A program made the position numbers and the translations under genes. A stretch of DNA of 64,000 nucleotides from a virus, in the IMG/VR virus record IMGVR_UViG_3300027970_000006; one strand, 5' to 3'. The notes beneath the pieces are model-generated. The model was not told the origin of the DNA, did not search any database, and saw only the letters and a program-made list of their open reading frames with translations. Each line of letters opens with the position of its first letter. Position 1 is the first letter of the stretch. Positions 206-61,657 of the stretch are shown piece by piece.

Positions 206-1246
206 ATGGAGTTTTTCATTAAAAAGGGGGCAACTCTTCCTGTATTAAAAATAAATGTAATAAAAGACGGACGAAGTGACTACGATAGAACTATGCGGTT
301 TTTAGAAGAAACTGACATATTTTTTTCTATGGTAAACACAGAAACAGGTATTCCAAAATTTACTACCAGACCTGCGGGTGTGATGAAAAAAGAACAAATT
401 GATCCGACATTAGAACCTGAATACTATGTTTATTATCAATTTACACCAAAAGACACGAAAAGTGTTGGTAGATATCAAGGTCAATTTTTATTCAGAAATG
501 AAACAGGAATTTTAACATTACCACTAAATCAAAACATATTTGTAAACGTAACGGATAGTTTTATAATAAATGATTATGAATATCAAAGTTGTTATGTTGT
601 AGATTTTCCTTGTTGTAAATCACAACCTTTACCACCACCAATTCCTCCAATACCAACAACTACCACATCAACCATAGCACCAACTACAACATCAACCACT
701 TCAATAAATGTTACAACAACATCTACAACCTTAGGTCCTGAACCAACAGGTTATACTGAGTGGGTTGTGTCATTTGGGTCGGGTAGTGTTAATAACGCTT
801 GTTCACAAACTGGTCAATTTGTAACCGCATATACACCTGTAATGTCGGCTTTAACAATTGGTCAAACTCTTTGGGCGACACCAAGTTTTGACACTTATTC
901 TTTTGCGACTAATGGCGGTTGGTTTAAAGTTTTAAAAAGAAATGGATTACCTTACTCACCAAATACAGTAGTGTATGTTGGTGCGTATAGTTTATTATTC
1001 GGTAATTATACTCAAGTGATTTATTCCCATGAGTGTGGAACTTCATTTCCTTGTAAATGTTTTACATATACTAAAACACAAAATAATGTGTTTAATTCGC
1101 GATATGTGAATTGTAATGGTAATGGTACTGCAATAACTTTACCATTTAATGGATCTCAAACTTTCTGTGCCGCCTTTACACAACCATATGACTACATAAG
1201 TGTTTCGGGAGGAAATAACAATTGTGTTAATGGAGTTTGTCCTTAA
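206..1246 (+). CDS. Virion fibre/decoration protein: BppU-like N-terminal domain, Pro/Thr-rich linker, Cys-rich C-terminal domain
   Basis: N-terminus MEFFIKKGATLPVLK...YYQFTPKDTKSVGRYQGQF resembles BppU-type baseplate-upper domains; PPPIPPIPTTTTST linker; TATTTAT upstream. Confidence 0.6.
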   Translation: MEFFIKKGATLPVLKINVIKDGRSDYDRTMRFLEETDIFFSMVNTETGIPKFTTRPAGVMKKEQIDPTLEPEYYVYYQFTPKDTKSVGRYQGQFLFRNETGILTLPLNQNIFVNVTDSFIINDYEYQSCYVVDFPCCKSQPLPPPIPPIPTTTTSTIAPTTTSTTSINVTTTSTTLGPEPTGYTEWVVSFGSGSVNNACSQTGQFVTAYTPVMSALTIGQTLWATPSFDTYSFATNGGWFKVLKRNGLPYSPNTVVYVGAYSLLFGNYTQVIYSHECGTSFPCKCFTYTKTQNNVFNSRYVNCNGNGTAITLPFNGSQTFCAAFTQPYDYISVSGGNNNCVNGVCP

Positions 1247-1284: not shown

Positions 1285-2505
1285 ATGGAGTTTACTATCG
1301 GTCAGAATTCAAATTTGCCATTATTGAAGTTACAAGTCGTAAAAGACGGTATAAGTAATTACGAGTCTATGATGAGTTTTATTGAGACTTCATCAATATT
1401 TTTTTCTATGTCGGACACCGAAACTGGTGTTTTAAAAATCAATTCCGAAGCGGCAAGTTTTGTTGAGAAAATGGAAATGAATCCAAATGCAAGTCCTGAA
1501 TTTTATGTGTATTACAGATTTACTCCACAAGACACAAGTAAACCAGGTCGTTATGAAGGTCAATTTGTATTTATAAATGAAACAGGGACACTTGTTTTAC
1601 CGATTAGAGAAAGGTTATTCATTAATGTTGTTGAAAGTTATTTATCAAATGATCTTCCTTATAATAATTGTTATGTTTTAGATTATAATTGTTGTATAAC
1701 TCCATTCCCAACACCAACCCCAACTCAGACCCCATATCCTGTATTAAGTAATACACCAACCCCTACACCAACATCAACCGTTACTCCTACCGTTACTCCT
1801 ACCGTTACGCCAACTAATACCGTTACGCCAACTAATACTCCAACTAATACTCCAACTAATACCGTTACACCAACTAATACACCAACTAATACACCAACAC
1901 CCACAGTAACTCCAACATTAACTCCGACAAATACCCCTACGGTAACACCTACAAACACACCAACTAACACCCCTACGGTAACACCTACAAACACTGTAAC
2001 CCCTACGGTAACACCTACAAACACTGTAACCCCTACGGTAACACCTACAAACACTGTAACCCCCACAATTACACCTACAAATACCCCCACTCCAACAGTA
2101 ACACCTACACAACAGTTTGGTTATATGAACGTAAAAGTTGCTTTAGACCCATTATCTTTATCTCAACCATATAGTATTTATTACGCGATCAATCCTTCTT
2201 TCATATCAACACAACCTTTTCCAACAGGATTGACGTGGAACCTATTAAATACTCAATCAGCAACAACTTGTCCTACTTTGACAAGTTTTGGATTGATACA
2301 GATTCCTATTGGGAATGTGTTGTATTTTCATTTAAGAGATAGTCTTGGTACTACGGTTTATCAGACTTCTGGTGGCGTTTTTGGTAATGATCCATGTGTT
2401 TCATCATTTGATTTTTATACCCATAATTTCTCTTTTGGGGGGCCGGGAACATTTGATTACGGTCTAAGGTTAATTTATCCACCATCAGGAGTCCCTTACC
2501 CTTAA
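1285..2505 (+). CDS. Paralog of 206..1246: BppU-like N-domain, long TPT(N/V) mucin-like linker, distinct C-terminal domain
   Basis: First ~135 aa clearly similar to the previous gene ([12 protein letters not shown]; [19 protein letters not shown]; CYVLDYNCC). Confidence 0.65.
1705..2110 (+). repeat. Coding tandem repeats encoding TPTN/TPTV (12-bp units and a 30-bp unit acacctacaaacactgtaacccctacggta)
   Basis: Perfect 30-bp copies at 1981-2010 and 2011-2040, a partial third copy, and ccaactaatac(t/a) units at about 1810-1895. Confidence 0.9.
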
Positions 2506-12323: not shown

Positions 12324-12383
12324 ACCTATTCTTTTAATAAAAATAATAATAAAAGTAATATTTATCAATAAAAAAGATTTTTT

Positions 12384-14094: not shown

Positions 14095-14182
14095 AGGGCA
14101 GAAAAAAGGCAGAATAAAATCATACCAAGATATAAATAGTTTTTATTTTGTAAAGTTTTTGATGAAAACCAAAGTATTTATA
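14095..14182. promoter_or_regulatory. Divergent TATTTATA promoters (RHH gene and sheath) with GGCAGAA direct repeat
   Basis: TATAAATA 14131-14138 (minus-strand motif), TATTTATA 14175-14182, GGCAGAA at 14097-14103 and 14108-14114. Confidence 0.6.
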
Positions 14183-14214
14183 GAAAAAATAAATAATTAA
14201 AAGTATTTTACAAT

Positions 14215-17200
14215 ATGGCAACTAACAGTAAGGTTTTTGTTTCGCCCGGTGTGTATACTTCTGAAGTTGACTTAAGCTTTGTAGCACAAAGTGTGGGTGT
14301 AACTACATTAGGTATTGTTGGGGAGACTTTAATAGGTCCAGCTTTTGAACCTATTTTCATTACAAATTTCACAGAATTTGAAACTGTTTTTGGGGCAACT
14401 TCTCCAGAAAAATTCATAAACACTCAAATTCCAAAATACGAAGCTTCGTATATTGCCAAGGCATACCTTCAACAATCTAATCAGTTATTTGTAACTAGAA
14501 TTCTTGGTTTATCAGGATATGACGCAGGCCCATCTTGGTCTGTAACAACTGTCGCTAACGTGAACCCATCAACAATTGGTGTTTGGTGTTTAAGTTCCGT
14601 TACAGATTTTACAACTTGTGAGACTATTTGTGTAACACCAAAAGAATTATCATTTACGGTTCCTTTTACAGCTTGTACAAACTCTCAAACAACAATTGGT
14701 TATACTACTGATTTTCCCGATGAAATTCAAAATATACTATTTGATCAATATGAACAATTTAATGGATCTGTATCTACTTTAGATTCACAAATTAGAAACT
14801 TAATTTTTGATGTAATAACCGATTCTCAACCATTCGTTGCAGAAGATGAATACATTTCTTACTTTGGTTCAATAGACACTAATGACTATAATACTTTAGA
14901 AGGTGCTGGATGGACAGCAGCAACTAACGTATTTAACGTTCCTTCAGTTTCTTTAGATGATACTGACTTAACATCTCCTTTGAATGACTCTTGGTATTAT
15001 GCCCTATTCACAAACACGGGGAATACTAATTATAGTGGTTATTCTTTCTTTACTTATATTTCAGGTTTAACTTCTTATTACCCTAACCCAACGCCAACAC
15101 CACAAGCGTCGGCTTCACCAACACCAACTCCTTCATTTGTTAATCCTTGTATTACACCTTCACCATTTACATCTCCAACACCGACACCGACACCTGTTAA
15201 CATAGATTGTTATTCAGGAACAATTGTTGGTAAAATTTATTACTATACTGGTACATCATATGTGAATTATGATAATGTGGTTGTTGGAACATTAAGGTCA
15301 AGAGGTATTTCAACTTATACAAATGCAACTAACCCAACTTATTCTGTAACAGGAACATCAGACGTAACACTTAATATGGCAGGTCAATACTCAACCGTAT
15401 TAAAAAACCCATACGCAACTTTTGGTGTAAACGTTGTTGATAAATTTGGAACAAATTATTCATTTGAAACTTCATTTACTCAAAACGATCCTGAATATTG
15501 GACTAAGGTATTTGGAGTAACTAACTTCCAAAAACCAAGAATTGAGGTTCCTGTTTTTGCTGAAGAAAATTTCCAATCATTCTTAAACTTCTCATGGAGA
15601 AAAGGATATATTAGAGGTTTAAATCCTAACTTAATTGCTCTTGACTCAGCACAAAGTGGTGATCCTGATTCAATTGGTTGGTATTTAGATAAATGGCAAA
15701 CACCTGTTTCACCTTTTGTTGTTTCAGAATTAAGAGGTAATAAAGTTTACGACCTATTTAGATTCTATACAATTTCTGATGGTGACGCAGCAAACACATT
15801 GGTTAAAATATCAATTATTAATCAATCATATAATAATTTAACGTTTGATGTATTGATTCGTAGTTATTTTGATACAGACGCAAACCCTGTGGTACTTGAG
15901 AAATTTACAAATTGTGGTATGGATCCGGGTCAAAATAATTTTATCGCAAATAAAATTGGTTCTTTAGACGGAGAATACGCACTTAATTCAAGATATGTAA
16001 TGGTTGAAATGAGTGAAGACGCTCCGATTGACACACTTCCTTGTGGATTTAACGGGTTTAATTTTAGAAACTACGCAGGTGCTAATTCACCATTCCCAAT
16101 TATTAAAGGTAAATATGACTTCCCTGGTGAAGTTATTTATAACCCACCATTTGGTTTATCTTCAGGTAACGATAATGCATTAGTAAGTCCGGGAGATAAC
16201 GTAAGAAGAACTTACTTAGGTATTTCTAATTCTTATGGATGGGATCCGGCATTCTTTGAATATATTGGTAAGAGAAACCCGATTAACTCTTGTGATATAG
16301 ATGGTCTTCCATTTAATTATAGATCTGAAGGTTTCCATATGGACGTAAATGCAAGTGGTTTAACAATCGGACCTGAATTCTCAACAAGTGGTGAACCAAG
16401 ATTTGTTTGTGGTAATTCATCATTCCTTACAGAACCAGAATTACCAACAAACGCTTATTACAGATTATTCGCACGTAAATTCACATTCTTAGTTCAAGGT
16501 GGATTTGATGGTTGGGATATCTATAGAGAATGGAGAACAAATACCGACGAATATCAAATTGGTAGAAGAGGTTTCCTTAACGGAGCATGTCCTTCATCAA
16601 GATACCCTACCGCAGTTGGTTGGGGAGCGTTTAAAGAAATTTCTTTGGGTGATGGAACACAAAACTTTGCTAATACCGACTATTATGCGTACTTGTTAGG
16701 TCAACAAACATTCGCAAACCCTGAAGCAACTAACATTAACGTATTTGTTACACCTGGTATTGATTATGTTAATAATAGTAATCTTGTTGAAGACGCAGTT
16801 CAAATGATTGAATTCAACAGAGCCGATTCACTTTATATTTGTACAACCCCTGACTACGACTTATATTTACCAACAACAACTGGTATTGATGGGTTTATCT
16901 ACCCTACAGAAGCGGTTAACAATTTGGATAACACAGGAATTGACTCAAACTATACCGCAACATATTATCCGTGGGTATTGACAAGAGATAGTGTAAATAA
17001 CACTCAAATCTATATTCCACCAACGGCTGAGGTAACAAGAAACTTGGCACTTACAGATAACATCGCGTTCCCGTGGTTCGCAGCGGCAGGTTACACTCGT
17101 GGTATTGTTAATTGTATTAAAGCTCGTAAGAAGTTAACACAAGAAGATAGAGACATTCTTTATGTTGGTAGAATTAATCCAATTGCCACTTTCTCTGATG

Positions 17201-17565: not shown

Positions 17566-17583
17566 TTTGAATTAAAGAAAACT

Positions 17584-17610
17584 AAAGGGGGACAATTGTT
17601 CCCCTTTTTT
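17584..17610 (+). terminator. Intrinsic terminator after the sheath
   Basis: AAAGGGGGAC-AATT-GTTCCCC-TTTTTT hairpin with U tract. Confidence 0.8.
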
Positions 17611-17632
17611 ATTAAACAAGATATTTATTATT

Positions 17633-38973: not shown

Positions 38974-40374
38974 ATGGCAACGAGTAAAAATTTTGAGTAT
39001 TTAGGAAATACATTTCAATTACAACTTTTAAATCAGATTATAGTAGATAAGGATTTTTCACATTCTATTATTGATGTAATTGAAAACAACTATTTTGAAA
39101 ACAAATACTTCAAAATCATAATTCAAATGATTAGGGAATATTATATCAAATATGATCATACACCATCATTTGAGACTCTTGAACAAATAACAAAATCAGA
39201 GTTACAACAAGAACTGGCATCAAAAATTGTGATGGACACAATTAAGAAAATTAAGGACGCACCTATTGATGGCGTTGGTTTTGTTCAAGAAAAGGCTTTA
39301 AAATTCTGTAAACAACAAGAGCTTCAAAAGGTAATGGGTAAGGCTCAGAAAATAATTGACGGAGGTGAGTTTGAAAATTACGACACATTAGAAGAGTTGG
39401 TTAAAACCGCACTTCAAGTTGGTGCAAAAGACACATCAATGACTGATATATTTTCAAACATTGATCAGGTATTAGAAGAAGACTATAGACACCCAATCCC
39501 TATGGGAATCCCTGGTATTGACCGACTACTTAAAGGTGGTTTGGCGAAAGGTGAGATTGGTGTAATTTTGGCACCAACTGGTGTGGGTAAATCAACAATT
39601 CTAACAAAGATTGCAAATCACGCATTTAATCTTGGATTTAATGTCCTTCAAGTGTTTTTTGAAGATAACCCAAAGGTAATTCAAAGAAAACATTACACAT
39701 TATTTACAAAGGTTCATCCTGACGATTTGTCAGAGAAAAAAGATTATGTTATGAAACGAGTTAGGGAAATTGAAGAGTCTATGCCAAACAAGTTGATAAT
39801 GAAAAAATTGGCTTCTGATACGATGACTATGTTACAAATCAAAAATCAAATTAGAAAAATGGTTTCTGATGGGATAAAAATAGACATGGTAGTTTTAGAT
39901 TATATTGATTGTGTTGTTCCAGACAAAAACTTGGGTGATGAATGGAAAAGCGAAGGATCGGTTATGAGAGCATTTGAGGCGATGTGTCATGAAATGGATC
40001 TTGTTGGTTGGACGGCGACACAAGGAAATAGAGCTTCAATTTCATCAGAAGTTGTAACAACAGATCAAATGGGAGGGTCAATTAAAAAGGCACAAGTTGG
40101 ACACGTAATTATATCTGTGGCCAAAACATTACAACAAAAAGAATTGAAACTGGCAACAATTGCAATTACAAAATCAAGAATTGGTGATGACGGGATTGTG
40201 TTTGAAAATTGTAAATTTGATAATGCAATGTTAGATATTGACACAGAAAGCTCTATGACATTCTTAGGGATTGAAGAACAAAAAGAAGAAAGACAAAGAC
40301 AAAGAGTTAGGGAGCTACTTGAAAAAAGAAAAGAAAAAGAGTCACAAAAGCCACAATCTTTTGTAAATAATTAA
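38974..40374 (+). CDS. dnaB: Replicative DnaB/gp41-like helicase
   Basis: Walker A APTGVGKST, VLDYID, WTATQGNR, KSRIG. Confidence 0.9.
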   Translation: MATSKNFEYLGNTFQLQLLNQIIVDKDFSHSIIDVIENNYFENKYFKIIIQMIREYYIKYDHTPSFETLEQITKSELQQELASKIVMDTIKKIKDAPIDGVGFVQEKALKFCKQQELQKVMGKAQKIIDGGEFENYDTLEELVKTALQVGAKDTSMTDIFSNIDQVLEEDYRHPIPMGIPGIDRLLKGGLAKGEIGVILAPTGVGKSTILTKIANHAFNLGFNVLQVFFEDNPKVIQRKHYTLFTKVHPDDLSEKKDYVMKRVREIEESMPNKLIMKKLASDTMTMLQIKNQIRKMVSDGIKIDMVVLDYIDCVVPDKNLGDEWKSEGSVMRAFEAMCHEMDLVGWTATQGNRASISSEVVTTDQMGGSIKKAQVGHVIISVAKTLQQKELKLATIAITKSRIGDDGIVFENCKFDNAMLDIDTESSMTFLGIEEQKEERQRQRVRELLEKRKEKESQKPQSFVNN

Positions 40375-40399: not shown

Positions 40400-42259
40400 A
40401 TGGATATTTCACAAAAAATATTAAGCAACATTACGGTGTATATGAAATACGCAAAATTCATTCCCGAATTAAATAGAAGAGAAACTTGGGAAGAATTGGT
40501 GACAAGAAATAAAGAAATGCACCAAAAAAAATACCCACAAATTAAAGAAGAAATTGAAAACGTTTATCAAATGGTATATGATAAAAAAATTCTTCCATCA
40601 ATGAGGTCTTTACAATTTGGCGGAAAACCAATTGAAATTTCACCAAACAGGGTTTATAATTGTGCATATTTGCCAATTGATCACCAAGATGCGTTTTCTG
40701 AAACTATGTTTTTACTTTTAGGAGGAACAGGAGTTGGGTTTTCAGTTCAAAAACACCACGTTGATAAATTACCTGAAATTAAAAAACCAAACCCAAATAG
40801 AACAAGAAGATATTTGATCGGTGATTCTATTGAAGGATGGGCGGACGCAATTAAAGTATTGGTTGAATCTTATTTTGGAATAAAATCATCAACACCAATT
40901 TTTGATTTTTCAGACATTCGTCAAAAAGGAGCGTTGTTGGTTACATCAGGAGGAAAGGCACCTGGCCCACAACCACTTAAAGATTGTATTCACAACATTA
41001 CAAAAGTATTTGAATCTAAAAACGATCGCGAAAAATTAACACCAATTGAAACTCACGATATCGTTTGTCATATCGCAGACGCAGTTCTTGCTGGTGGAAT
41101 TAGAAGGGCCGCTTTAATTTCGTTATTCTCTGCGGATGATGAAGAAATGATTTCTTGTAAGTCAGGAAATTGGTGGGAACAAAATCCACAAAGAGGAAGA
41201 GCAAACAATTCGGCGGTACTTCTTCGTCACAAAATAACCAAAGAATATTTTATGGGTCTTTGGAAAAGAATTGAATTGTCAGGAGCAGGAGAACCCGGAA
41301 TTTATTTATCAAACGATAAAGATTGGGGAACAAATCCTTGTTGTGAGATCGGACTTCGTCCTTATCAGTTCTGTAATTTATGTGAGGTAAATGCTTCTGA
41401 TATTGAATCACAAGAAGATTTTGAACAACGAGTAAAAGGGGCTGCGTTCATTGGGACACTTCAAGCGGGATATACTGATTTCCATTACCTTCGCGATGTA
41501 TGGAAAAGAACCACAGAAAAAGATGCTCTTATTGGTGTTGGAATGACGGGTATTGGATCAGGAGTTGTTTTAGGTTATGATATGGAAGCAGCTGCACAAT
41601 CTGTTAAAGATGAAAACGAAAGAGTTGCAAATCTTATTGGAATCAATGCGGCAGCAAGAACAACAACCGTTAAACCATCAGGAACATCATCTTTAGTTTT
41701 GGGAACCTCATCAGGAATTCACGCTTGGCATAATGATTATTATTTAAGAAGAATTCGTGTTGGAAAAAATGAGGCAATTTATTCTTATCTTGCAATCAAT
41801 CACCCCGAACTTGTTGAAGATGAGTTCTTTCGTCCACACGATACCGCAGTAATTACAATTCCACAAAAAGCACCTGAAGGGTCAATCTTGAGATATGAGT
41901 CAGTGTTTGAAATGTTAGAAAGAGTTAAAAAAGTTTCAAAAGAGTGGGTTAGATCTGGTCACAGAACAGGACAAAATACACATAATGTTTCGGCTACAAT
42001 TTCAGTTAAAGAAGATGAGTGGGAACAAGTTGGTGATTGGATGTGGAAAAATAGAAAATTTTACAATGGACTTTCAGTATTACCATACAACGGAGGAACT
42101 TATACCCAAGCACCTTTTGAAGATTGTATACAAGAAGATTTTGAAAGATTAGTTAAGACATTAACAAATGTTGACTTAACTAAAGTCATTGAATTACAAG
42201 ATAATACAAATCTTAGTGGTGAAGTTGCTTGTGGAGCGTCTGGATGTGAAATAGTATAA
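40400..42259 (+). CDS. nrdJ: Class II (adenosylcobalamin-dependent) ribonucleotide reductase
   Basis: PSMRSLQ, YNCAY, GGTGVG, GGIRRAA, TNPCCEI, VKPSGTSS, C-terminal CGASGC; no ATP cone; no small subunit nearby. Confidence 0.9.
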   Translation: MDISQKILSNITVYMKYAKFIPELNRRETWEELVTRNKEMHQKKYPQIKEEIENVYQMVYDKKILPSMRSLQFGGKPIEISPNRVYNCAYLPIDHQDAFSETMFLLLGGTGVGFSVQKHHVDKLPEIKKPNPNRTRRYLIGDSIEGWADAIKVLVESYFGIKSSTPIFDFSDIRQKGALLVTSGGKAPGPQPLKDCIHNITKVFESKNDREKLTPIETHDIVCHIADAVLAGGIRRAALISLFSADDEEMISCKSGNWWEQNPQRGRANNSAVLLRHKITKEYFMGLWKRIELSGAGEPGIYLSNDKDWGTNPCCEIGLRPYQFCNLCEVNASDIESQEDFEQRVKGAAFIGTLQAGYTDFHYLRDVWKRTTEKDALIGVGMTGIGSGVVLGYDMEAAAQSVKDENERVANLIGINAAARTTTVKPSGTSSLVLGTSSGIHAWHNDYYLRRIRVGKNEAIYSYLAINHPELVEDEFFRPHDTAVITIPQKAPEGSILRYESVFEMLERVKKVSKEWVRSGHRTGQNTHNVSATISVKEDEWEQVGDWMWKNRKFYNGLSVLPYNGGTYTQAPFEDCIQEDFERLVKTLTNVDLTKVIELQDNTNLSGEVACGASGCEIV

Positions 42260-43004: not shown

Positions 43005-44846
43005 ATGGCAGAGAAAAAAATATCATACACGGTTAGAGACTTTCAAGGAGTAAGAACTGAATTAATTAATTTTACAAGAACTTATTATCCTGATTTGGTT
43101 CAAAACTTTAATGATGCAGGTATTTTTTCTGTGATGTTGGATTTAAATGCTGCGGTTACCGATAATTTAAATTATCAAATAGATAGAAGTATACAAGAAA
43201 CCGTATTACAATTTGCTCAACAAAAAAATTCGGTATACAATATTGCAAGAACATACGGATTAAAAGTTCCCGGACAAAGACCATCGGTTGCTTTAATTGA
43301 CTTTTCAATTACGGTTCCGGCTTTTGGTGATAGAGAAGATTTAAGATATTGTGGTGTATTAAGAAGAGGATCACAAGTTAATGGTGGAGGACAACCATTT
43401 GAAACGGTATATGATATTGACTTTGCGTCACCAATCAATGCTGAAGGATCGCCAAATAGAGTTAAAATACCAAACTTTGATAGTAGTGGTAAATTATTAA
43501 ATTATACCATTGTTAAAAGAGAAGTTGTTGTTAATGGTATTACAAAAGTATATAAAAGAGTTATTACACCAAATGATTCAAAACCTTATTTAGAATTATT
43601 TTTACCTGAAAAAAATGTTTTAGGTATTACAAGTGTTTTATTAAAACAAGGAACACAATATTCAACGATACCTAACCCACAAGATTTTTTAACTTTGGGT
43701 CCCGAAAGATGGTTTGAGGTGGACGCTTTGGTTCAAGATAGGGTATTTGTTGAAGACCCAACAAAAGTTTCGGATCAGCCAGGTATTAAAGTTGGAACTT
43801 ATATTACCACATCAAACAAATTTATTTCTGAATATACACCACAAGGGTTTTGTAAAACGACTTTTGGTGGTGGAAACATTTCAGCAGACGAACAATTAAG
43901 ACAATTTGCTATTGACGGAAAAGGATTTGATTTAAGTAGATATACAAATAATTATGCTTTGGGCGCTGCTTTACCACCAAACACAACTTTGTTCGTTCAA
44001 TATAGAATTGGTGGTGGTTTATCAAGTAATTTGGGAATTAACACCATAAATCAAATTGGAACGGTTTCTTTTGCTGTTAACGGTCCTTCACAAAGTGTGA
44101 ATAATAGTGTTATCAATAGTTTACAATGTAATAATGTAACCGCAGCAATTGGAGGAGCGAATCCACCAACAACGGAAGATGTTAGAAATTTGGTCGCGTT
44201 TAACTTTGCGGCACAGAATAGAGCGGTAACCGTAAATGATTATAATTCACTTATTAGAACGATGCCTTCTCAATTTGGGGCACCAGCAAAAGTTGCGATT
44301 ACAGAAGAAAATAATAAGATAAGAATTAAAATGTTGTCTTATGACTCTAGTGGAACATTAACAAATGTTGTATCAAATACCTTAAAACAAAATGTTGCCA
44401 ATTATTTATCTAATTATAGAATGATAAATGATTATATATCTATTGAAGCTGCAGAAACGATTGACTTATCTGTTACTGTGGATGTTGTATTAGATAATAG
44501 CCAAAATCAAGGGGCAATCATTTCAAAAACAATTCAAATTATTACCGACTTCTTTAACCCATTGGTTAGAAATCTTGGTCAAAATGTTAACATATCAGAA
44601 TTAAGAAGATTAATTCAATCAGAAAATGGTATTGTAAGTATTACAGATATATTATTCTTTAATCAAGTTGGGGGTCAGTATTCATCTGCACAAACTTCTA
44701 TGCCATACGCAGATCCATTTACAAGACAAATTCGACCAACAGCAGATACTTTGTTTGCGACACCAACACAAACTTACCAAATTAGGTATCCAAATAAAGA
44801 TATTAATGTTAGAGTTTTGAACCTGAAATCAGTAAACTTTTCATAG
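43005..44846 (+). CDS. Baseplate wedge protein (gp6 / baseplate J-like)
   Basis: RDFQGVRTEL, IARTYGLK, AAIGGANP, AQNRAVTVNDY. Confidence 0.88.
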   Translation: MAEKKISYTVRDFQGVRTELINFTRTYYPDLVQNFNDAGIFSVMLDLNAAVTDNLNYQIDRSIQETVLQFAQQKNSVYNIARTYGLKVPGQRPSVALIDFSITVPAFGDREDLRYCGVLRRGSQVNGGGQPFETVYDIDFASPINAEGSPNRVKIPNFDSSGKLLNYTIVKREVVVNGITKVYKRVITPNDSKPYLELFLPEKNVLGITSVLLKQGTQYSTIPNPQDFLTLGPERWFEVDALVQDRVFVEDPTKVSDQPGIKVGTYITTSNKFISEYTPQGFCKTTFGGGNISADEQLRQFAIDGKGFDLSRYTNNYALGAALPPNTTLFVQYRIGGGLSSNLGINTINQIGTVSFAVNGPSQSVNNSVINSLQCNNVTAAIGGANPPTTEDVRNLVAFNFAAQNRAVTVNDYNSLIRTMPSQFGAPAKVAITEENNKIRIKMLSYDSSGTLTNVVSNTLKQNVANYLSNYRMINDYISIEAAETIDLSVTVDVVLDNSQNQGAIISKTIQIITDFFNPLVRNLGQNVNISELRRLIQSENGIVSITDILFFNQVGGQYSSAQTSMPYADPFTRQIRPTADTLFATPTQTYQIRYPNKDINVRVLNLKSVNFS

Positions 44847-52323: not shown

Positions 52324-53116
52324 AATAAAAATTGTAAAAGATGATATTAACAAATATGTTAATATTCCCATTAATATGCAATGGGATTTTATGGGTAGGG
52401 ACGAAAGCATTTCTGAATATGAAACAGAGATGGTTAAACAGGTTACCGGAGTTGCTGCCGATTTTGAAATTGCAAGATTTAGTCATAATGTGTTTAATAA
52501 TGGTGACTCAGCAATTAATTATGAATTTAATTTTTATGATGACTCCCAACCAATAACGGCAACTACGGTTGGAGCATGGTCAAACACATATTTGAATAAT
52601 GGATTTTCAGTTCAAGACGTTTATTATTATTCAAAACCTTTCACAAAATCTTTTTTTAAATTAGATTTTTATGACACAAAAGAAGAAAAAACACAACAAA
52701 TTTATTTGTCAGTAATTCTCCCCGTTCAACAAGGATTGACACAAACCGTAGTTTTATCGCCAATCATACCTCCTGTTGAAATTAAAAAACCAAAAATGGT
52801 TTTGGATTATATTGGAAATGATAAAGAAGGGTTTTTTATTTATTGGTTAAGAAGTAGGGATTTTATAGATATATCAACTTTTTATATGACCGCCAAATTT
52901 TTTGATGCAAGAGAAGGAGTTTTTAAACAAATGACAAATACAAGACAAGATTTAATAACCCCAAGCAAGTTTGATTTTAATAATGAGGACTATTTTTATT
53001 ATAAGGTGGAATTAGATTATAACGATAAAACTTACGAAGTGTTTTCAACATCAACAACTCTAAGAGTTGGAGATTCAAACTCACCGATAATCTGGTATGA
53101 ATATGTTAACCCATAA
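52310..53116 (+). CDS. Structural protein
   Basis: 268 aa, KSFFKLDFYD motif, coupled to its neighbours. Confidence 0.55.
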   Translation: MNASRIKIVKDDINKYVNIPINMQWDFMGRDESISEYETEMVKQVTGVAADFEIARFSHNVFNNGDSAINYEFNFYDDSQPITATTVGAWSNTYLNNGFSVQDVYYYSKPFTKSFFKLDFYDTKEEKTQQIYLSVILPVQQGLTQTVVLSPIIPPVEIKKPKMVLDYIGNDKEGFFIYWLRSRDFIDISTFYMTAKFFDAREGVFKQMTNTRQDLITPSKFDFNNEDYFYYKVELDYNDKTYEVFSTSTTLRVGDSNSPIIWYEYVNP

Positions 53117-54291
53117 TGGAATTACAAGAATTTAAGTTTATTATTTCCCCTGAGAATATCAAAAGTGATATTATTTTTGTTCCATACACAGGAGAAACAG
53201 ATATTACAACAATCATTGATCCTTGTTGTTTAACAGCAACAACCACAAGCGCAACAACAACAGGAACAACAGGGGTTTATCTTCCAATGAGTTATATTTT
53301 AAGTGGAAACACAGGAGGGACTTCATTTTTAACTGGTTTATCGGTAAACATATTAATAACAGAATCTGCCGTTGACTTGGGTTATTATACACCTTTTGAT
53401 GGTTTAGTTTTACAAGCTGATGTGTTAAATAATTTTATTGTTACCGCAAATACAATTAACCCATATACTTATACTTTTTACAATACCTCTGATTTAGAAT
53501 TTGTTAAGTTTTTACAACTATGTACTTATACATTAGATTGGGGGGACGGATCACCACAACAGGCGGTTTTAGGTATTTCACCAATTACACATACATACGC
53601 AACTGCAAATAATAACTATACAATTACCTTGACCGCCAACTCGCCTTGGGGGATATCAAAAGTTCAAAAACCTATTTTAACACCATATAGTGCCGCCACA
53701 ATACCAAACCCACAAGGATCAATAACATTTTATCCCGCAGGTGGAAGTTGGTCGGCAAACCCTGTAAGCTATGATTATATCTTTACAGGAGATTCAAATA
53801 CAAACATTAACGACTACTATTCATACAACTACACATCAGTTCCATTTCCAATAACAGGATTTACAGAATCCACCGTAAATGATTTGGCACAATACGGACC
53901 TAAAATTAATTTATCAGGAGGTAAGTTTAAGTTGGGGATTCAAGTAACAGGAACAACAGGTGCTATCGGAACTTATTATGGCGTAGATCCAACAGGAACT
54001 TATAGTGCCTACACAATGAACGGAGCGATTTACCATGACTATGAAGATTTTACAATATATTTTACAGACTCATATGGATTAGTCCCTGGTGATTTAGAAT
54101 TATCGGCAATAACTAAAAATGAAGCTTTACTAAATGTTATTGACCAACCAGAAGTTATTACTAATGTTTATATTGAAAGAGGAAAATACACACCATTAGA
54201 AAATGTTATGAGATTAGGTGAGGTTGATAATGTTGGGGATTTACAGAAATACGGATACAAATATTTTACAATAGAAAAAGTATCAACATAA
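53116..54291 (+). CDS. Structural protein with PKD-like domain
   Basis: YTLDWGDGS...ITHTY...YTITLTA PKD signature. Confidence 0.65.
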   Translation: MELQEFKFIISPENIKSDIIFVPYTGETDITTIIDPCCLTATTTSATTTGTTGVYLPMSYILSGNTGGTSFLTGLSVNILITESAVDLGYYTPFDGLVLQADVLNNFIVTANTINPYTYTFYNTSDLEFVKFLQLCTYTLDWGDGSPQQAVLGISPITHTYATANNNYTITLTANSPWGISKVQKPILTPYSAATIPNPQGSITFYPAGGSWSANPVSYDYIFTGDSNTNINDYYSYNYTSVPFPITGFTESTVNDLAQYGPKINLSGGKFKLGIQVTGTTGAIGTYYGVDPTGTYSAYTMNGAIYHDYEDFTIYFTDSYGLVPGDLELSAITKNEALLNVIDQPEVITNVYIERGKYTPLENVMRLGEVDNVGDLQKYGYKYFTIEKVST

Positions 54292-55224: not shown

Positions 55225-58211
55225 TGGCAACAAATAAATTTACTTGTCCACCTCAAAGTAGTGCCGCTAACCAATTCTCCAATAATTTAGTTGGTGTTCA
55301 GTTGGTCACTGGAGGAGGTCTAACGCAAGCAAATTTTAATTTTACTACAGGTATTTCTGAAAAACAAAATCGGACATTCAACATAGGAACATTCTCAGAC
55401 CCAATTAATTTACAATCCATGAATATGGAAAGTAATATTGAGTCCGCAGAAATTTTAGCAAACAACTATAGAGTTTACCCAAATTACGATTTATCACAAG
55501 TAACAAACTTCACACAATACGGATCATTAGTAAAAAGATTTTCAACATCGGTTACAAAGATTATCAATTATTTTCCGGCAGCTTTAGAGGTGTCCCCAAC
55601 AACACCAAAATTCATTACCCAAGAAACCGCGATTAACATTTCATATGATTCGGTAGAAAATGATACAATTTTTGAAGTTTATTTAGGATCAATCCAAAAT
55701 CCATTTGAAATTGATTATAGTGTTAATTCTGAAGTAAACATGATGTTTAACGAACTTGAAGTTTCACCATTAAGGAATATGAAATTAGAGTATAAGAAAT
55801 ACGTGTTATATGTTAATGGTAATCAATATCCTGTAAATTACTTATACCCAACTGATAGTTCATCGGTAACATTAAAACTTATTGTTGATGGAAATCCGTT
55901 TAGTGGAAATCAAATTTCTTATGAATATTTGGTTATTAGACCAAGTGATTATGAAACAAATAAAGTTTTTAATTTGAATTTTGACACTGTTGAGCAATTT
56001 TTATTAAATAGACAAATAACTCCGGCATACACCGCAACTTTTACCGTTCCAAAAGAACAAGAAGACGGAACTTTTATTTTAACAACAGAAACCGCAACAT
56101 GGCCAAGATCAGGATTTTGGAATTTGGATATTAGATCAGGATCTTTTGATAATTATTTGATAAAAATTAATGATTTTGCATATAACTTAGATCAATATAC
56201 CACAAATATTGTTTCTAGATTTTTAACAACAGGGGCTCTTAAAGAATTTGACACACCCGATCAAAAGTTTGAAAAACTACTCCAAATATACGGAAGAAGT
56301 TTTGATGAAACAAAGACGTTTATTTCTGCGTTAGGAAACATTAATAGTATTCACTATACGGTTCAAAACGATATCCCATCACAATTATTAAAAAATTTGG
56401 CACAAACATTAGGATGGGTTACAAATTTTTCACCAATATCAAATGAAGAGTTATTACAGGCTGTATTCACAACACAACCAAATACTTTTCCAGGGTTACA
56501 AATAGGACAAACACCTGAAGAAATAAATTATCAGTTTTATAGAAATTTAATTCTAAACTCTGCATATCTCTTTAAATCAAAAGGGACAAGAAAATCTATA
56601 GAATGTTTATTAAGAATGATCGGTGCTCCAGAAGCGATTACCGAATTTAATGAATATATTTATGTTGCTGACCAAAGAATAAATATGAGTGAGTTTAATC
56701 AACAATACGCTCAAATTAGTACTGGTACATTATCAACACAAATCCCAATTTTAGACACTACCGACGTGTTTTCAATTCAAGGGGTTTCATATACAGGGTT
56801 TACAACAACATCAACAAACGTAAATGTTTTAACAACAAGAACTGATTACCCTGTTGATGAGTTTGGTTGTCCCAAAATGCCAACACCATCAGAAAGTTAT
56901 TTTTTCCAAATAGGCGGTGGGTGGTTTGAATCAACACCTCAACATAGAATGCCCGAATTTGCGATTCCAACAAATCAGGTCTTCACAGGAAATAACCCAA
57001 ATTATCAAACACAACTTTTACCTTTTAATTATGGGGAAGAATATCTACAAAGATATAGACATTTTCCTTATATGGACATGGGGTATAAATTAAGAAATGT
57101 TATTGATAATAAAAAAAGTTGGGTAGATACAAACTCAACTTTAAGAACAAGTTTTGAGGGGGGATTTAATTCGTATTATAATGTTGGTGAAGAGTGTTTA
57201 ACGTTAAATGTTAAAAACGTGGACATAATGATGAACCCAGCACAAGGATTAGCTTACGATGTTTGGTATATGTCCCGACAATATAATTTCCCAATACCAG
57301 AACAGGGTTTATTTTACACACCACCATCACCATGTTATATACCTAACCCATATCCAAAATTGGGTGGGGTAGATTGGACAACAATAGTCCCAAAACCAAA
57401 ACAAAAAACTTTCTTTGAGTTCGCTCAAACATTTTGGAGAAATATGATAAACACGAGAAATCGTCAATTTATCACCGATGGAAAAACAGGAGGATATCCG
57501 ACGTTACAATCAATATATTGGAGGTATTTAGAGTCCATTAAATTGGCTGGAGTTCCAAACAACAATTACACATATCAAACAATGATAGATTATGTGAATG
57601 GTATGGGAGATTATTGGATTCAAATGATTGAACAAATGGTTCCTGCTACCACAATTTGGAACACAGGAACAAGATTAGAAAATTCAATATTTCATAGACA
57701 AAAATTTGTATGGAGAAGACAAGAAGGTTGTAAGTTTCTTCCAATACCTTGTAAACCTTGTAATCTTACAACACAACTATATGTATTGGATTGTCCGGTA
57801 CAACAAGTGACTTGTGGACTATATCCTTGGACGACAAACCCAAATACCACATCATTTGGAATTGTATTAGGAGAAACCATGTTAGACTTCTTCTTGTCTC
57901 AAGGGTTGGATCCAAATAATTGTCAAATCAACACGATTGTGAGTAATTGGTATGTTGATATAAGAATAAATGGGTTGATATTAACACAATACGGTTTTTT
58001 CACTGGTGTTGGAACAAATGGGTTCCCAACTAGTAGTCAATGGGTTACAGCTTTGTCTGAGGCTTTTGATGGTTTACTAAACAATGGGTATGGTTATAAT
58101 ATTGATGAGACAGACGAAGAAATCGTTGTGTTCAATAATAATTGTCAACCAAATTTTGACGACCTTCAAATTAATGTTGGGATAAACTTTGAAGTGTATT
58201 GTAACGGGTAA
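55224..58211 (+). CDS. Baseplate wedge protein (gp7 / P2 tail protein I-like motif)
   Basis: LLKNLAQTLGW...YRNLILNSAYLFKSKGTRKSIE. Confidence 0.65.
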   Translation: MATNKFTCPPQSSAANQFSNNLVGVQLVTGGGLTQANFNFTTGISEKQNRTFNIGTFSDPINLQSMNMESNIESAEILANNYRVYPNYDLSQVTNFTQYGSLVKRFSTSVTKIINYFPAALEVSPTTPKFITQETAINISYDSVENDTIFEVYLGSIQNPFEIDYSVNSEVNMMFNELEVSPLRNMKLEYKKYVLYVNGNQYPVNYLYPTDSSSVTLKLIVDGNPFSGNQISYEYLVIRPSDYETNKVFNLNFDTVEQFLLNRQITPAYTATFTVPKEQEDGTFILTTETATWPRSGFWNLDIRSGSFDNYLIKINDFAYNLDQYTTNIVSRFLTTGALKEFDTPDQKFEKLLQIYGRSFDETKTFISALGNINSIHYTVQNDIPSQLLKNLAQTLGWVTNFSPISNEELLQAVFTTQPNTFPGLQIGQTPEEINYQFYRNLILNSAYLFKSKGTRKSIECLLRMIGAPEAITEFNEYIYVADQRINMSEFNQQYAQISTGTLSTQIPILDTTDVFSIQGVSYTGFTTTSTNVNVLTTRTDYPVDEFGCPKMPTPSESYFFQIGGGWFESTPQHRMPEFAIPTNQVFTGNNPNYQTQLLPFNYGEEYLQRYRHFPYMDMGYKLRNVIDNKKSWVDTNSTLRTSFEGGFNSYYNVGEECLTLNVKNVDIMMNPAQGLAYDVWYMSRQYNFPIPEQGLFYTPPSPCYIPNPYPKLGGVDWTTIVPKPKQKTFFEFAQTFWRNMINTRNRQFITDGKTGGYPTLQSIYWRYLESIKLAGVPNNNYTYQTMIDYVNGMGDYWIQMIEQMVPATTIWNTGTRLENSIFHRQKFVWRRQEGCKFLPIPCKPCNLTTQLYVLDCPVQQVTCGLYPWTTNPNTTSFGIVLGETMLDFFLSQGLDPNNCQINTIVSNWYVDIRINGLILTQYGFFTGVGTNGFPTSSQWVTALSEAFDGLLNNGYGYNIDETDEEIVVFNNNCQPNFDDLQINVGINFEVYCNG

Positions 58212-60397
58212 TGAGTATTTCTGTTTATAATTTTAATGTAACTGGTGATTGTAGTAATACAAATTCGGGATCCGTATATTTTAATATTACAGGATCAACA
58301 CCCCCGTTTGCAGTTACCTGTATTACCTCTGGTTGTCCATTACCAACATCAGCAGCCACATTAAGTTATTCAGCGTCAAGTTTATCGGCAGACACTTATT
58401 TTTTACAAATTATTGATGGGGTATCTAACTCATATTTACAAGCGGTTTATATTTCATCAGGAACAACAGCAACAATTGACTCTCAAAACACTAGTTGTGG
58501 TTTAGATAATGGGATTATTACAGGATTTACGTCTGGGGTTTATGGTATTGCAACATTTACACTTTATGATGGGAGTGATAATTATGTGACATCAGCCACA
58601 ACACCAAATTCATATTATGATTTCACATCTTTATCTGCCGGTACTTATTATATTGTCGCAAATGATGGGGGTGGGTGTACAGGAATAACCGCCTCTGTAA
58701 TTTTAACACCATCAACAGGTCTTACATTTGGGGCATATATCGTAAATGATGGTAGTTGTATTGGAACCCCAAGTGGTAAATTATTTTTAACAGGTTTAAC
58801 ATTACCAAGTTCGGCCTATACAATAACTTGGTCACCAAATGTTAATGGACAAACAGGAACTACCGTGACAGGACTAACAGGAGGGGTTTATTTGGCGACG
58901 GTAACAGACCCAAATAATTGCACCACCACAAATTCATTTAACGTTAACACCGTTGGTGCATTAACTTCTGCTGGTTTTATAACGATAGACCAACCAACAT
59001 GTTTTTTTAATGATGGTGTGGTTGAGTTTATAATTACAGGTGGAACCGCGCCATATTTTTTCAGTGGATCATCAGGTCAGGTAGAAATTACTTTTAATCA
59101 ATCAGTTATTTTTACAGGATTATCATCGGGGGGTTATAGTTTTTTAGTGACAGATGCAGGGCTTTGCACCATTTACGACTCTGTTTCTTTAATAACACCA
59201 AATTCATTTAGTACCGTTGCCGTTAATACGACACCATCAACTTGTTCTGCTAATGACGGGACAATTCAAGTAATAGTTGACAATGGATTATCAACACAAC
59301 CAAGTTTACTAATCTCAATTTCTGGAACATCAGGAACACAACAAATTGGAACATTAGGAAACCCAAGTCAAACATTTTATGGTTTACCAAATGGAACTTA
59401 TTTGGTAGAGGTAGAGTCCGCAGGGTGTACTTACACAGCAACAACAAATATAACATCTGTCAATTTATATACCGTAACAGCAACAACCACAGGAACTACT
59501 TGTGGGTCAAGTAATGGGATATTACAAGTTTTAGTTTCCACTGGCGGAACCTTACCTTATTTATTTACCTTAGTTGGCCCTTCATATTCTCCTGTGTCAA
59601 CAACATCACCCGTTGGAACTTTTACAAATCTTACTTATGGAAATTATACACTTACGGTACAAGATTCAGGATCTCCATCGTGTGTGCAGACATTTCCTGT
59701 TTATATTGATTATAGTCAAAATGTGTTTTTTAATTTATACCCAAATCAACCATTTAACGGAAATGACGGATCAATAACTACAATTATCACATCAGGAGAA
59801 CCACCATTTACATTAACTTGGACTGGTAATGTTTCTGGTCAAACAGGGTCAACAATTACCGGATTAACTTCAGGATCTTACTCATTAACTGTAACAGACT
59901 CAAGTGGGTGTACTTTAACAAAAACTATAAAATTATCAGGAACAAAAAAATATAGTAATTACCGATATTATAATATATGTGAAAATACTTTTTCAAATAG
60001 TGGGTTAGTGACCAAAAGAGATATTAGATCTATGTATTTAGAAGGCTTTAATGACCTTACAAGTGGTGATACTAATTGTATAATAAATGAAGCAACATTT
60101 ACAATATTTGCACAAATTGGATCTCAATCTGCTCAAACCGAATTTTATACATCATCAGGGTCTACTGATTATCCTAGTGATACTATATGGGCTCAAACAA
60201 TAACAAATACATTGGATTCATTTTTAGGTATATCAGGAACAACGGTTGATATCATATCAAATAGAATTACCGTAAAAACAACTTGTGAAGACATACCAAA
60301 GGGTTGTATAATTGAACCAATAAACCCACTACAAGATAATCAAATAACCGTTAATCTTATCATTGATTATGACATATCTTGTGTTTCTTGTATTTAA
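58211..60397 (+). CDS. SprB-repeat adhesin-like tail fibre/spike protein
   Basis: Repeated C...G.I...TGGT.PY.(F/Y)...GL..G.Y..TVTD..GC units. Confidence 0.75.
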   Translation: MSISVYNFNVTGDCSNTNSGSVYFNITGSTPPFAVTCITSGCPLPTSAATLSYSASSLSADTYFLQIIDGVSNSYLQAVYISSGTTATIDSQNTSCGLDNGIITGFTSGVYGIATFTLYDGSDNYVTSATTPNSYYDFTSLSAGTYYIVANDGGGCTGITASVILTPSTGLTFGAYIVNDGSCIGTPSGKLFLTGLTLPSSAYTITWSPNVNGQTGTTVTGLTGGVYLATVTDPNNCTTTNSFNVNTVGALTSAGFITIDQPTCFFNDGVVEFIITGGTAPYFFSGSSGQVEITFNQSVIFTGLSSGGYSFLVTDAGLCTIYDSVSLITPNSFSTVAVNTTPSTCSANDGTIQVIVDNGLSTQPSLLISISGTSGTQQIGTLGNPSQTFYGLPNGTYLVEVESAGCTYTATTNITSVNLYTVTATTTGTTCGSSNGILQVLVSTGGTLPYLFTLVGPSYSPVSTTSPVGTFTNLTYGNYTLTVQDSGSPSCVQTFPVYIDYSQNVFFNLYPNQPFNGNDGSITTIITSGEPPFTLTWTGNVSGQTGSTITGLTSGSYSLTVTDSSGCTLTKTIKLSGTKKYSNYRYYNICENTFSNSGLVTKRDIRSMYLEGFNDLTSGDTNCIINEATFTIFAQIGSQSAQTEFYTSSGSTDYPSDTIWAQTITNTLDSFLGISGTTVDIISNRITVKTTCEDIPKGCIIEPINPLQDNQITVNLIIDYDISCVSCI

Positions 60398-60400
60398 GTT

Positions 60401-60625
60401 ATGGCAAATCAAGTAACCATAAATACCATTTCAGGATTAACAACACCATTTAGTGGTTATTGTTGTGATGTTTACGGAAATCAATGTTCTTATATTGGAG
60501 TAATTAGTAGTTTACCAACAACAATTACATTACCAATTCAATTTAATACCGCACCAGCAATAGGATTAAAACTTATTAAAGATAATGGGTGTGAAAGGTT
60601 AGAAACAATTTACTGCACAACATAA
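60401..60625 (+). CDS. Small Cys-rich structural/accessory protein
   Basis: 74 aa; YCCDVYGNQCSY and KDNGCE motifs. Confidence 0.6.
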   Translation: MANQVTINTISGLTTPFSGYCCDVYGNQCSYIGVISSLPTTITLPIQFNTAPAIGLKLIKDNGCERLETIYCTT

Positions 60626-60659
60626 TACACTTGTTTTAAACTTTTCATATAATTAAAAT

Positions 60660-61640
60660 ATGGAAGAAATATTGTTTGTTTCGGCACAACCTGACGTGCC
60701 ATATTTTATATGGCAAATTAAGTTGTATGTTCATAATTTTATAGAAAATGGAATTAACCCAAATCAAATTCATGTTGTATTAGGTCTTGTACAAGGCAAA
60801 ACAACACCATCAAAAGAATCTGAAGAGTTAAAAAACTTAAATATAAATATTCATTATTTTGTTGACGAAAGAATATCAAAACATTATATCCCGTCAATAA
60901 AACCATATTTAATTTCAAAGTGGATTCAGTCAAACCCAAAACATGGTGAGTTATTTTTTCTTCACGACGCAGATATAATTTTTAGAGAACTACCGAACTT
61001 TGATCGGTTGTTGAACGATGATGTCAATTATTTATCTGACACCATTGGATATATTGGATATAATTATATTATGGATTGTTGTGATAGATATGAAAATCGT
61101 CATCCATCTTCAGAAAAAGGTCAATTGATAAAAGAAATGGCCGTAGTTATTGATATTGATGTTGAAACAATAAAGATAAACCAAGAAAACTCTGGTGGAG
61201 GACAATACCTTATAAAAAACACAAGTTGCGAGTTGTGGGATAAGATATATAAAGATTCAACCAAACTTTATGATAAAATGATATCATACCAAAGAAGATT
61301 TCCAATATCCCCTGGTGAGATACAATTTTGGACTGCAGAAATGTGGTCAGTTCTTTGGAATTTATGGTTGTATAATCATCAAACAAAAATAACAAAAGAA
61401 TTGGATTTTTCTTGGGCAACAGACCCAATTGAAATCTATGATGAAAAACCCATATTACATATGGCAGGAGTCACCGATAATTTGAAAACTACAAAATTTT
61501 TTAAAGGGGACTATATTAATATTGACCCAATAACAAAACTTAAAGAAAATCCGAATCAGTTTGATTATGTTGATTTTAAAAGTTCAACGATTAAATACAT
61601 TGAGAATATGAGATCTTATATTAAAAAATACAATGTTTGA
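60660..61640 (+). CDS. GT-A glycosyltransferase resembling peptide O-glycosyltransferases (GT95 HPAT / GT96 SERGT-like)
   Basis: YIPSIKPY..SKW, FLHDADIIF (DxD), GGGQYLI, WTAEMW, ILHMAG motif order. Confidence 0.6.
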   Translation: MEEILFVSAQPDVPYFIWQIKLYVHNFIENGINPNQIHVVLGLVQGKTTPSKESEELKNLNINIHYFVDERISKHYIPSIKPYLISKWIQSNPKHGELFFLHDADIIFRELPNFDRLLNDDVNYLSDTIGYIGYNYIMDCCDRYENRHPSSEKGQLIKEMAVVIDIDVETIKINQENSGGGQYLIKNTSCELWDKIYKDSTKLYDKMISYQRRFPISPGEIQFWTAEMWSVLWNLWLYNHQTKITKELDFSWATDPIEIYDEKPILHMAGVTDNLKTTKFFKGDYINIDPITKLKENPNQFDYVDFKSSTIKYIENMRSYIKKYNV

Positions 61641-61657
61641 TTATTTATTATTATTAG

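Follow-up and report, generated by a model that had tools for sequence, protein, structure and literature searches.

A glycosyltransferase gene among fibre-like genes

A 64,000-nucleotide stretch of viral DNA (IMG/VR record IMGVR_UViG_3300027970_000006; hereafter the window) contains at 60660..61640, on the plus strand, a gene for a predicted glycosyltransferase (GT), which is considered here together with the threonine (Thr)-rich virion proteins that accompany its relatives. The open reading frame (ORF) starts with ATG and encodes 326 aa. It lies 34 bases 3' of a 74-codon ORF and 17 bases 5' of the next fibre-like gene, all of these being plus-strand genes. The window is a mixture of replication and tail genes with a G+C content of about 30-35%. 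Close relatives of the 60660..61640 protein were found on viral contigs of 272-318 kb that are 93-100% complete according to CheckV, and one relative, G001, was observed to be collinear with the entire window at 76-85% nucleotide identity. Because of these near-complete contigs and this collinearity, the window is assigned to an aquatic jumbo myovirus. A host among the Bacteroidota is indicated by SprB repeats and by a type IX secretion system (T9SS) sorting domain in one protein of G001. The G001 protein in question (13700-17734, L198, minus strand; 1345 aa) contains a CHU_C-associated Ig-like domain, a Thr-rich tract and the T9SS C-terminal sorting domain (Por_Secre_tail), and looks like a captured host surface adhesin.

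Relatives of the 60660..61640 protein are encoded on more than 216 viral contigs, of which 80, syntenic with the window and carrying relatives 66-93% identical to the protein, were kept for the figures on the jumbo lineage. Because of this distribution and synteny, the ORF is taken to be a real gene. Within the lineage it is better conserved (66-93% identity) than the flanking fibre genes (31-83%). A profile scan of viral contigs returned the same jumbo lineage only, adding no diversity, and promoter and terminator scans gave counts at chance level. A 64%-identical homolog adjoining a poly-Thr protein was also observed on a 5.3-kb contig binned as 'Candidatus Woesearchaeota' (L227, CAYGYN010000024.1), which is probably a misbinned piece of the same lineage.

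The first-pass annotation had described a GT-A enzyme with a DAD motif at this locus, and the ORF, the conservation of its motifs and an AlphaFold2 model all bear this out. The order of motifs that had been likened to plant enzymes is present as Y76-IPS-IKP82, D103-A-D105, G179-GGQY183, W224-TAEM228 and I265-LH267. An alignment of 56 members shows no variation at D105, H267, G180, G270 or K282, and conservation of 90% or more at D103, Q182, W224 and M228; the DxD and late His positions are also at least 90% conserved across 150 cluster representatives. The protein matches phrog_4417 of PHROGs, a family of unknown function, with an E-value of 4.9e-66 (residues 6-317 on profile positions 3-288 of 293). 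Pfam returned no family for it even at E <= 10, and a PDB sequence search gave nothing useful. A HMMER scan of 1.84 billion cluster representatives recovered 830 relatives, many of them 500-1400 residues long. The phrog_4417-type family is very large, mostly phage-borne and without a name.

The AlphaFold2 model, built with 56 relatives as the alignment, has a predicted local distance difference test (pLDDT) score of 97.4 and shows a GT-A, Rossmann-like alpha/beta/alpha fold. Foldseek matched 371 PDB chains at E <= 0.001, with GT-A enzymes throughout among the matches listed, and Foldseek and VIA-align agree that the top solved folds are retaining GT8/GT24-type GT-A enzymes. The VIA-align matches include glycogenin (Z 15.3; 229 residues aligned, root-mean-square deviation 3.6), the Skp1 alpha-galactosyltransferase Gat1 (Z 14.8), the catalytic domain of UGGT (Z 14.4), LgtC (Z 14.3), WbbM (Z 14.1) and GlyE (Z 13.7), the GT8-type matches spanning 212-244 residues at 7-12% identity with Z 13.7-15.3 and template modelling (TM) scores of 0.45-0.5. 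The fold is thus of GT8 type, as judged from glycogenin and LgtC, and the DxD and late His are common to the phage enzyme and to glycogenin, Gat1, LgtC, UGGT and GlyE. The sequences are nevertheless unlike, and membership of GT8 by sequence was rejected: PF01501 matches neither the protein nor anything in five homolog-bearing phage genomes. The model opens with a beta strand (residues 5-11), with no N-terminal membrane anchor, and no membrane segment was seen by inspection of the sequence; because of this, the enzyme should be cytoplasmic. With its DxD and late His, the 60660..61640 product is predicted to be a soluble, metal-dependent GT-A glycosyltransferase.

Plant and algal hydroxyproline O-arabinosyltransferase (HPAT; PF23452, GT95) and peptidyl-serine alpha-galactosyltransferase (SGT1; GT96) act on hydroxyls in Pro/Ser/Thr-rich peptides. 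The phage GT family has the same motif order, and hydroxyl groups in such peptide stretches are proposed as its acceptor too. A likeness to GT95 and GT96 had been suggested from these motifs, and it finds some support as distant homology. PF23452 is the one family that was matched twice among the 56 members, with an E-value of 0.09 that lies below the gathering threshold; it gave no score for the 60660..61640 protein, nor for two jumbo-phage relatives and three cultured phages. HPAT is the commonest named family among the language-model neighbours (19/30). In a scan of 30 prokaryote genomes with family members, three bacterial ORFs passed the PF23452 cut-off at 25.7-34.6 bits. These ORFs (L307:1009-2142, L308:1336-2370 and L309:1327-2196, all on the minus strand) come from two Acidimicrobiia genomes and one Myxococcales genome. 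All three have a phrog_4417-type gene within 5 kb, which in the Myxococcales genome is in tandem with the ORF. Bacterial members of the 'plant' HPAT family thus exist, paired with the phage GT family. The hidden Markov model of the phage GT family scores the three ORFs at 17-24 bits, and hhalign aligned the family profile with an alignment of these three bacterial sequences at 93.4% probability (E 2.5e-7, 244 columns), with Y..(S/N).KP, DxD, W.(A/S)(E/D)M and I.H in register. A search for longer relatives, aimed at plant SGT1, returned only fused phage and bacterial forms. We conclude that the phage family, as compared with the bacterial HPAT-positive ORFs, is probably a distant sister of the HPAT family and not a member of it. 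Unlike HPAT, the phage enzyme has no PF23452 score and no N-terminal membrane anchor, and its likely acceptor is Thr rather than hydroxyproline (Hyp).

The family domain is also found fused to second GT domains (GT2, GT7C, GT25, GT6, GT32, GT60 and O-FucT) and, beyond GTs, to sulfotransferase, methyltransferase and radical-SAM/SPASM domains. These fusions would agree with the building of glycans on peptides. P0273, P0274, P0276 and P0277 (about 660 aa) each combine the family domain with radical-SAM and SPASM domains, a combination typical of peptide-modifying maturases.

Threonine-rich tracts beside the enzyme and its homologs

The placement of the GT gene between SprB-repeat fibre genes, also noted in the first-pass annotation, was confirmed. 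The downstream fibre-like protein (61658..63733, plus strand; 691 aa) carries SprB repeats that score 43.5 bits, above the Pfam cut-off. The upstream one (58211..60397, plus strand; 728 aa; 17% Thr, 13% Ser), syntenic in relatives, scores a sub-threshold 18.8 bits, and its repeats are visible by eye; both proteins share the same C..NG...TGG..P(Y/F) units. Between the upstream gene and the GT gene lies the small Cys-rich ORF of 74 aa (60401..60625, plus strand), ending in IYCTT. Its orthologs run on into long (PT)n tracts (164-394 aa), so that the ORF is truncated in this phage exactly where the linker of its relatives begins. A comparable difference was observed in the downstream protein, whose CVLT site carries poly-Thr or (PT)n inserts in relatives and the short form in the clade of the window. 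The window ends within the start of a further protein of about 830 aa (63763..64000, plus strand). An ortholog 99% identical over this start carries the linker CLVQPGYSP-T6-YFPN-T6-INPY-T6-LCPTC, whose three T6 runs correspond to positions beyond the window end.

Across the jumbo lineage, the fibre genes beside the GT gene are rich in poly-T and (PT)n linkers, many of them with Cys at their borders, and TTTTTT and TPTPTP forms were observed to interchange at orthologous linker sites. Because the linkers swap these forms, Thr would seem to be their selected feature; it is Thr, not Hyp or Pro, that is conserved in the tracts.

Further tracts lie at a distance from the enzyme. At the opposite end of the window, two paralogs of 346 aa (206..1246) and 406 aa (1285..2505), both on the plus strand, share a 137-residue N-terminal beta-sandwich domain at 50% identity. 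In the first, this domain is followed by CC, a Pro/Thr tract (DNA 605-706) and a C-terminal domain; in the second, by a 145-aa (TPTN/TPTV)n tract (DNA 1690-2124). Both are candidate acceptors. The model of the N-terminal domain is of medium confidence (pLDDT 65), and its best match, the N-terminal anchoring domain of BppU from the TP901-1 baseplate (Z 6.1, 20% identity), lies within the noise of the list; because of this, a virion location of the paralogs is something that we infer. PTPTP-type linkers are also present in an insertion of the tail sheath protein (15061..15222, plus strand), and a short Thr-rich tract, TATTTSATTTGTT, follows a PCC motif in the protein 53116..54291 (tract at 53233..53271, plus strand). 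The Pro/Thr tracts listed in the first-pass annotation were recovered at 605-706, 1690-2124, 15061-15222 and 25130-25192, with the difference that the last of them is Pro-rich, not Thr-rich. The tracts and coordinates thus stood, whereas the structural status given to 206..1246 and 1285..2505, and the role of hub given to 21986..27079, are putative. The fibre-like proteins (206-2505, 53116-54291 and 58211-63733) are Cys-rich, with Thr-rich linkers typically placed after CC or between single Cys residues (DFPCC, DYNCC, DPCC, CLVQPG...CPTC), which is odd for proteins assembled in the cytoplasm.

Homologs in other phages were found to be placed in a similar way. The gene directly follows the major tail protein gene in Enterococcus phage phiFL1A, Clostridium phage phiCTP1 and Staphylococcus phage SA2, and the capsid gene in VPE25. 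All four have a poly-Thr tail at the end of the tail-tube protein, and phiFL1A has one on the capsid protein as well. A matched control was provided by 20 viral contigs of Enterococcus phages with orthologous phiFL1A-type tail-tube proteins (65-100% identity). Poly-Thr tails were present on both the tail-tube protein and the capsid protein, encoded 2 kb upstream, at 9/9 GT-positive loci, and on 0/11 tail-tube proteins and 0/9 readable capsid proteins at GT-negative loci, even though the latter loci include tail-tube proteins 82-88% identical to tagged ones (Fisher p = 6e-6, for loci that are not independent). Because two separate genes change together with the GT gene, a simple inserted cassette is no explanation.

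The same pairing was observed in VPE25-like, SA2-like, phiCTP1, Lactobacillus Bacchae and Chryseobacterium MA9V-3 phages. Relatives of the VPE25-like and SA2-like phages (88% and 39% identity) that lack the GT also lack the tails. MA9V-3 is the closest cultured relative on a Bacteroidota host, and the two genes upstream of its GT gene contain long internal poly-Thr/Ser tracts. In four of these phages, runs of at least five Thr are confined genome-wide almost wholly to virion-gene modules; in phiFL1A, the termini of capsid and tail-tube proteins are the only sites that have them. The pairing extends to at least seven unrelated phage groups, in counts uncorrected for shared ancestry. Co-occurrence with Thr/Pro-rich virion proteins, which the first-pass annotation had named as the observation that could overturn its proposal, is accordingly strong in unrelated phage groups and found throughout the jumbo lineage. 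In SA2, a short ORF of near-pure poly-Thr (L005:4661-4924) overlaps the tail-tube gene at its 3' end, and in VPE25 another (LT615366.1 77908-78063) overlaps the capsid gene in the same way; these may be frameshift extensions that give some subunits a far longer tag.

At 80 loci in prokaryote genomes, the gene immediately upstream was observed to be Thr-rich in 23/75 cases (31%), compared with 19/403 (4.7%) of genes at least three positions away and 0/79 of downstream genes (p = 6e-10). In Bacillota prophages, a Thr-rich tract is present at 17/18 loci.

A proposed virion O-glycosylation and its alternatives

What was observed here, namely the ORF with its fold and conserved catalytic motif, the spread of the family and its linkage to Thr-rich virion proteins, indicates that the 60660..61640 product is probably a Thr O-glycosyltransferase of virion proteins. 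We infer its acceptor, donor, linkage and benefit to the phage. The enzyme would move a sugar from a nucleotide sugar to Thr hydroxyls in poly-T or (PT)n tracts of virion proteins encoded by the same phage; this would take place in the host cytoplasm, before or during assembly. Candidate acceptors are the Thr-rich linkers of the adjoining fibre proteins and the two PT-tract paralogs at 206-2505. Because the nearest solved folds are all retaining enzymes, the sugar is best guessed to be alpha-linked. The first sugar would probably be extended or complemented by other GTs of the phage, namely a GT60 enzyme and an HtrL-like protein encoded just upstream of the window and, in relatives, several GT2 enzymes. 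The earlier proposal that the phage glycosylates its own virion linkers is in this way supported by comparative evidence, in that the GT is linked to Thr-rich virion proteins.

The first-pass annotation had suspected that the window begins with the tail of another GT-like gene. Bases 1-177 (plus strand) hold the final 58 codons of a gene for which the G001 ortholog (555 aa) contains an HtrL_YibB domain, and in G001 a GT60 gene (PF11397, E 3e-69) is located two genes upstream of that one, beyond the window start. A single PF11397 gene (E about 1e-57 to 1e-69) was found in G001 and in the more distant relative G002, alongside roughly six to eight GT2-type ORFs in each. G002 keeps the order of polymerase, PT-type protein and GT60, but where G001 has the HtrL-like gene it carries a GT25 gene. 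A variable GT island adjoins the PT paralogs (G001 132816-136601, L204:12816-16601, minus strand; G002 298479-301460, L314:8479-11460, minus strand), with GT60 as its constant gene and a second gene that is HtrL_YibB-like in G001 and at the start of this window, and GT25 in G002. Together with the domain fusions, this arrangement would suit a modular system in which the starter enzyme is conserved and the extenders vary. Thr-rich or PTVT-type mucin-like tracts serve as acceptors for the GT60 polypeptide alpha-GlcNAc transferases (PF11397) of Dictyostelium and Trypanosoma. GT60 resembles the enzyme proposed here in its acceptors; one such gene lies beside the PT paralogs of relatives, and its domain is fused to the phage GT family in other proteins. 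It is, however, a different protein family from 60660..61640, and its gene is outside the window.

Several observations weigh against the proposed glycosylation of virion Thr. With GT60 and GT2-type genes present in the collinear relatives, any of several enzymes may serve a given tract. In the clade of the window, few Thr-rich tracts adjoin the GT gene, the large ones being 59 kb off or past the window end, and no relative lacking the GT gene was found in the jumbo lineage, which hence offers no matched control. The fold comparison cuts both ways: the nearest GT8-type folds include protein-modifying enzymes as well as the lipopolysaccharide (LPS) transferases LgtC and WbbM, and the fold does not fix the acceptor. 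No Thr-rich neighbours were found for chromosomal copies of the gene in Chitinophaga, Pedobacter, Mucilaginibacter and Sphingobacterium. These copies are fused to a GT7C-type domain and adjoin genes for a LanC-like protein, GT1 and HlyD and, in one case, for a 73-aa Cys-rich peptide with a double-glycine leader. By this content they look like gene clusters for glycosylated ribosomal peptides, a context that points to peptide substrates and not virions. Because these Chitinophagia and Sphingobacteriia copies lie in clusters of this kind, the acceptor of the family is not always a virion protein. Furthermore, no experiment on any family member was found in the literature. Clusters of the chromosomal type from Chitinophaga, Sphingobacterium and Mucilaginibacter, whose family members carry the fused Glyco_transf_7C-type domain, are represented by L234:5001-9107, L274:4078-7633 and L243:9193-9414 (minus strand).

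The most serious alternative, although an unlikely one, is that the jumbo-phage enzyme is an extender: the GT60 polypeptide GlcNAc-transferase would start on Thr, and the GT8-like enzyme would add a later sugar in the manner of Gat1. The single PF11397 gene in both the collinear G001 and the more distant G002, the fusion of the family domain to PF11397 in P0145, P0153, P0158, P0291 and P0292, and the rank of Gat1 among the top structural matches (Z 14.8) are in keeping with this. However, the GT60 gene is about 60 kb from 60660..61640 and lies beside the PT paralogs, not the fibre cluster. Moreover, five cultured phages that have the GT and poly-Thr tags gave no match to PF00535 (GT2), PF00534 (GT1), PF01501 (GT8) or PF11397 (GT60), and because no such gene is present there, the family enzyme must place the first sugar in those phages. 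It is improbable that the enzyme modifies phage DNA or the glycans of the host envelope (LPS, teichoic acid or capsule) for anti-restriction or superinfection exclusion, with the Thr tracts as flexible linkers. Phage GTs are known to act in DNA glucosylation and serotype conversion (PMC12619734), the LPS transferases LgtC and WbbM are close folds, and the Bacchae gene lies near recA and a sigma factor. Even there, the GT is flanked by three small poly-Thr-tailed proteins, and elsewhere, in lytic as well as temperate phages, it is part of structural operons. Poly-Thr tails on two separate virion genes also come and go with the GT, and no membrane segment was seen by inspection. DNA modification and serotype conversion were rejected on gene context alone.

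Very little probability is given to a third substrate, a small secreted or ribosomally made peptide in place of virion proteins. The chromosomal neighbours described above (LanC-like protein, HlyD and the double-glycine-leader peptide) and the radical-SAM/SPASM fusions of some members favour such a substrate, whereas no peptide of this kind, exporter or LanC gene was found near the GT in the window or its relatives, and the phage context is always that of virion genes. Least probable of all is a protein without catalytic activity that keeps a GT-like fold and serves in structure or assembly. Its location among structural genes and the label 'major tail protein' on a homolog in one GenBank record would suit such a role, but across the 56 members the DxD, the His and some ten other residues show little or no variation, with the same positions at least 90% conserved in the 150 representatives, and the domain is repeatedly fused to active-looking GT domains.

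Returning to Thr O-glycosylation of virion proteins, a broader reading is somewhat favoured, though by no means assured. A prokaryotic and viral sister of the plant extensin GTs, together with encoded poly-Thr/(PT)n tags, may constitute a widespread and so far undescribed system of cytoplasmic virion O-glycosylation. The system would extend, at this same level of confidence, over temperate and lytic phages of Enterococcus, Staphylococcus, Lactobacillus and Clostridium, phages of Bacteroidota and 300-kb aquatic jumbo phages. With no greater assurance, the GT60, GT25, HtrL-like and GT2 enzymes may diversify the glycan between related phages, by analogy with bacterial O-antigen clusters.

Known systems and other features of the window

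To our knowledge, virion glycosylation by phage-encoded enzymes has been documented for actinobacteriophages only, and literature searches turned up no description of this GT family or of phage poly-Thr tags. In mycobacteriophages, as summarized in PMC12619734 and PMC13313380, phage-encoded transferases put O-glycans on C-terminal extensions of capsid and tail-tube subunits (Freeman et al., 2023). In the terms of those summaries, the tagging of two proteins, capsid and tail tube, is likewise seen in the Enterococcus, Staphylococcus and Clostridium phages described here. A phage GT with Thr-rich tags on capsid and tail-tube proteins is thus present in the homolog-bearing Gram-positive phages, and internal linkers of fibre-like proteins take their place in the window. 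Unlike the mycobacteriophages as summarized there, which infect Actinobacteria, the present phages have Bacillota or Bacteroidota hosts, nearly pure poly-Thr tags and an enzyme of a family without a name, and the tracts of the jumbo lineage are internal linkers of fibre proteins and not C-terminal tails. These results are best read as an addition to the phage virion glycosylation already known, what is new being an HPAT-related enzyme family and the poly-Thr/(PT)n tags. A64R of Chlorovirus PBCV-1 (PDB 2p6w) is also a virus-encoded cytoplasmic GT-A enzyme for the virus's own major capsid protein and matches the model with Z 10.9. It ranks well below the GT8-type enzymes, and it belongs to a eukaryotic virus. 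The attachment of the A64R glycan differs from that proposed for the phage enzyme.

If the proposal is true, sugar-coated virions would be common, including among phages studied for therapy against Enterococcus and Staphylococcus, where a shield of glycans would matter for how antibodies recognize the particles and how these are cleared. Abundant aquatic jumbo phages of Bacteroidota would be included, in which glycans on fibre linkers could affect stability, protease resistance and adhesion. The plant HPAT and SGT1 enzymes would gain prokaryotic and viral relatives, and one tag with one enzyme would make a minimal system for protein O-glycosylation in the bacterial cytoplasm.

The remaining genes identified in the window include those for a DNA polymerase (2608-5424), the tail sheath (14215-17565; PF17482/phrog_23), a DnaB-type helicase (38974-40374), ribonucleotide reductase (40400-42259) and a baseplate wedge (43005-44846). 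In addition, an ORF of 968 aa at 9462-12368 (minus strand) matches ATPase profiles of the terminase-large-subunit type at residues 158-556 and DNA helicase profiles at residues 550-959, an unusual pairing.

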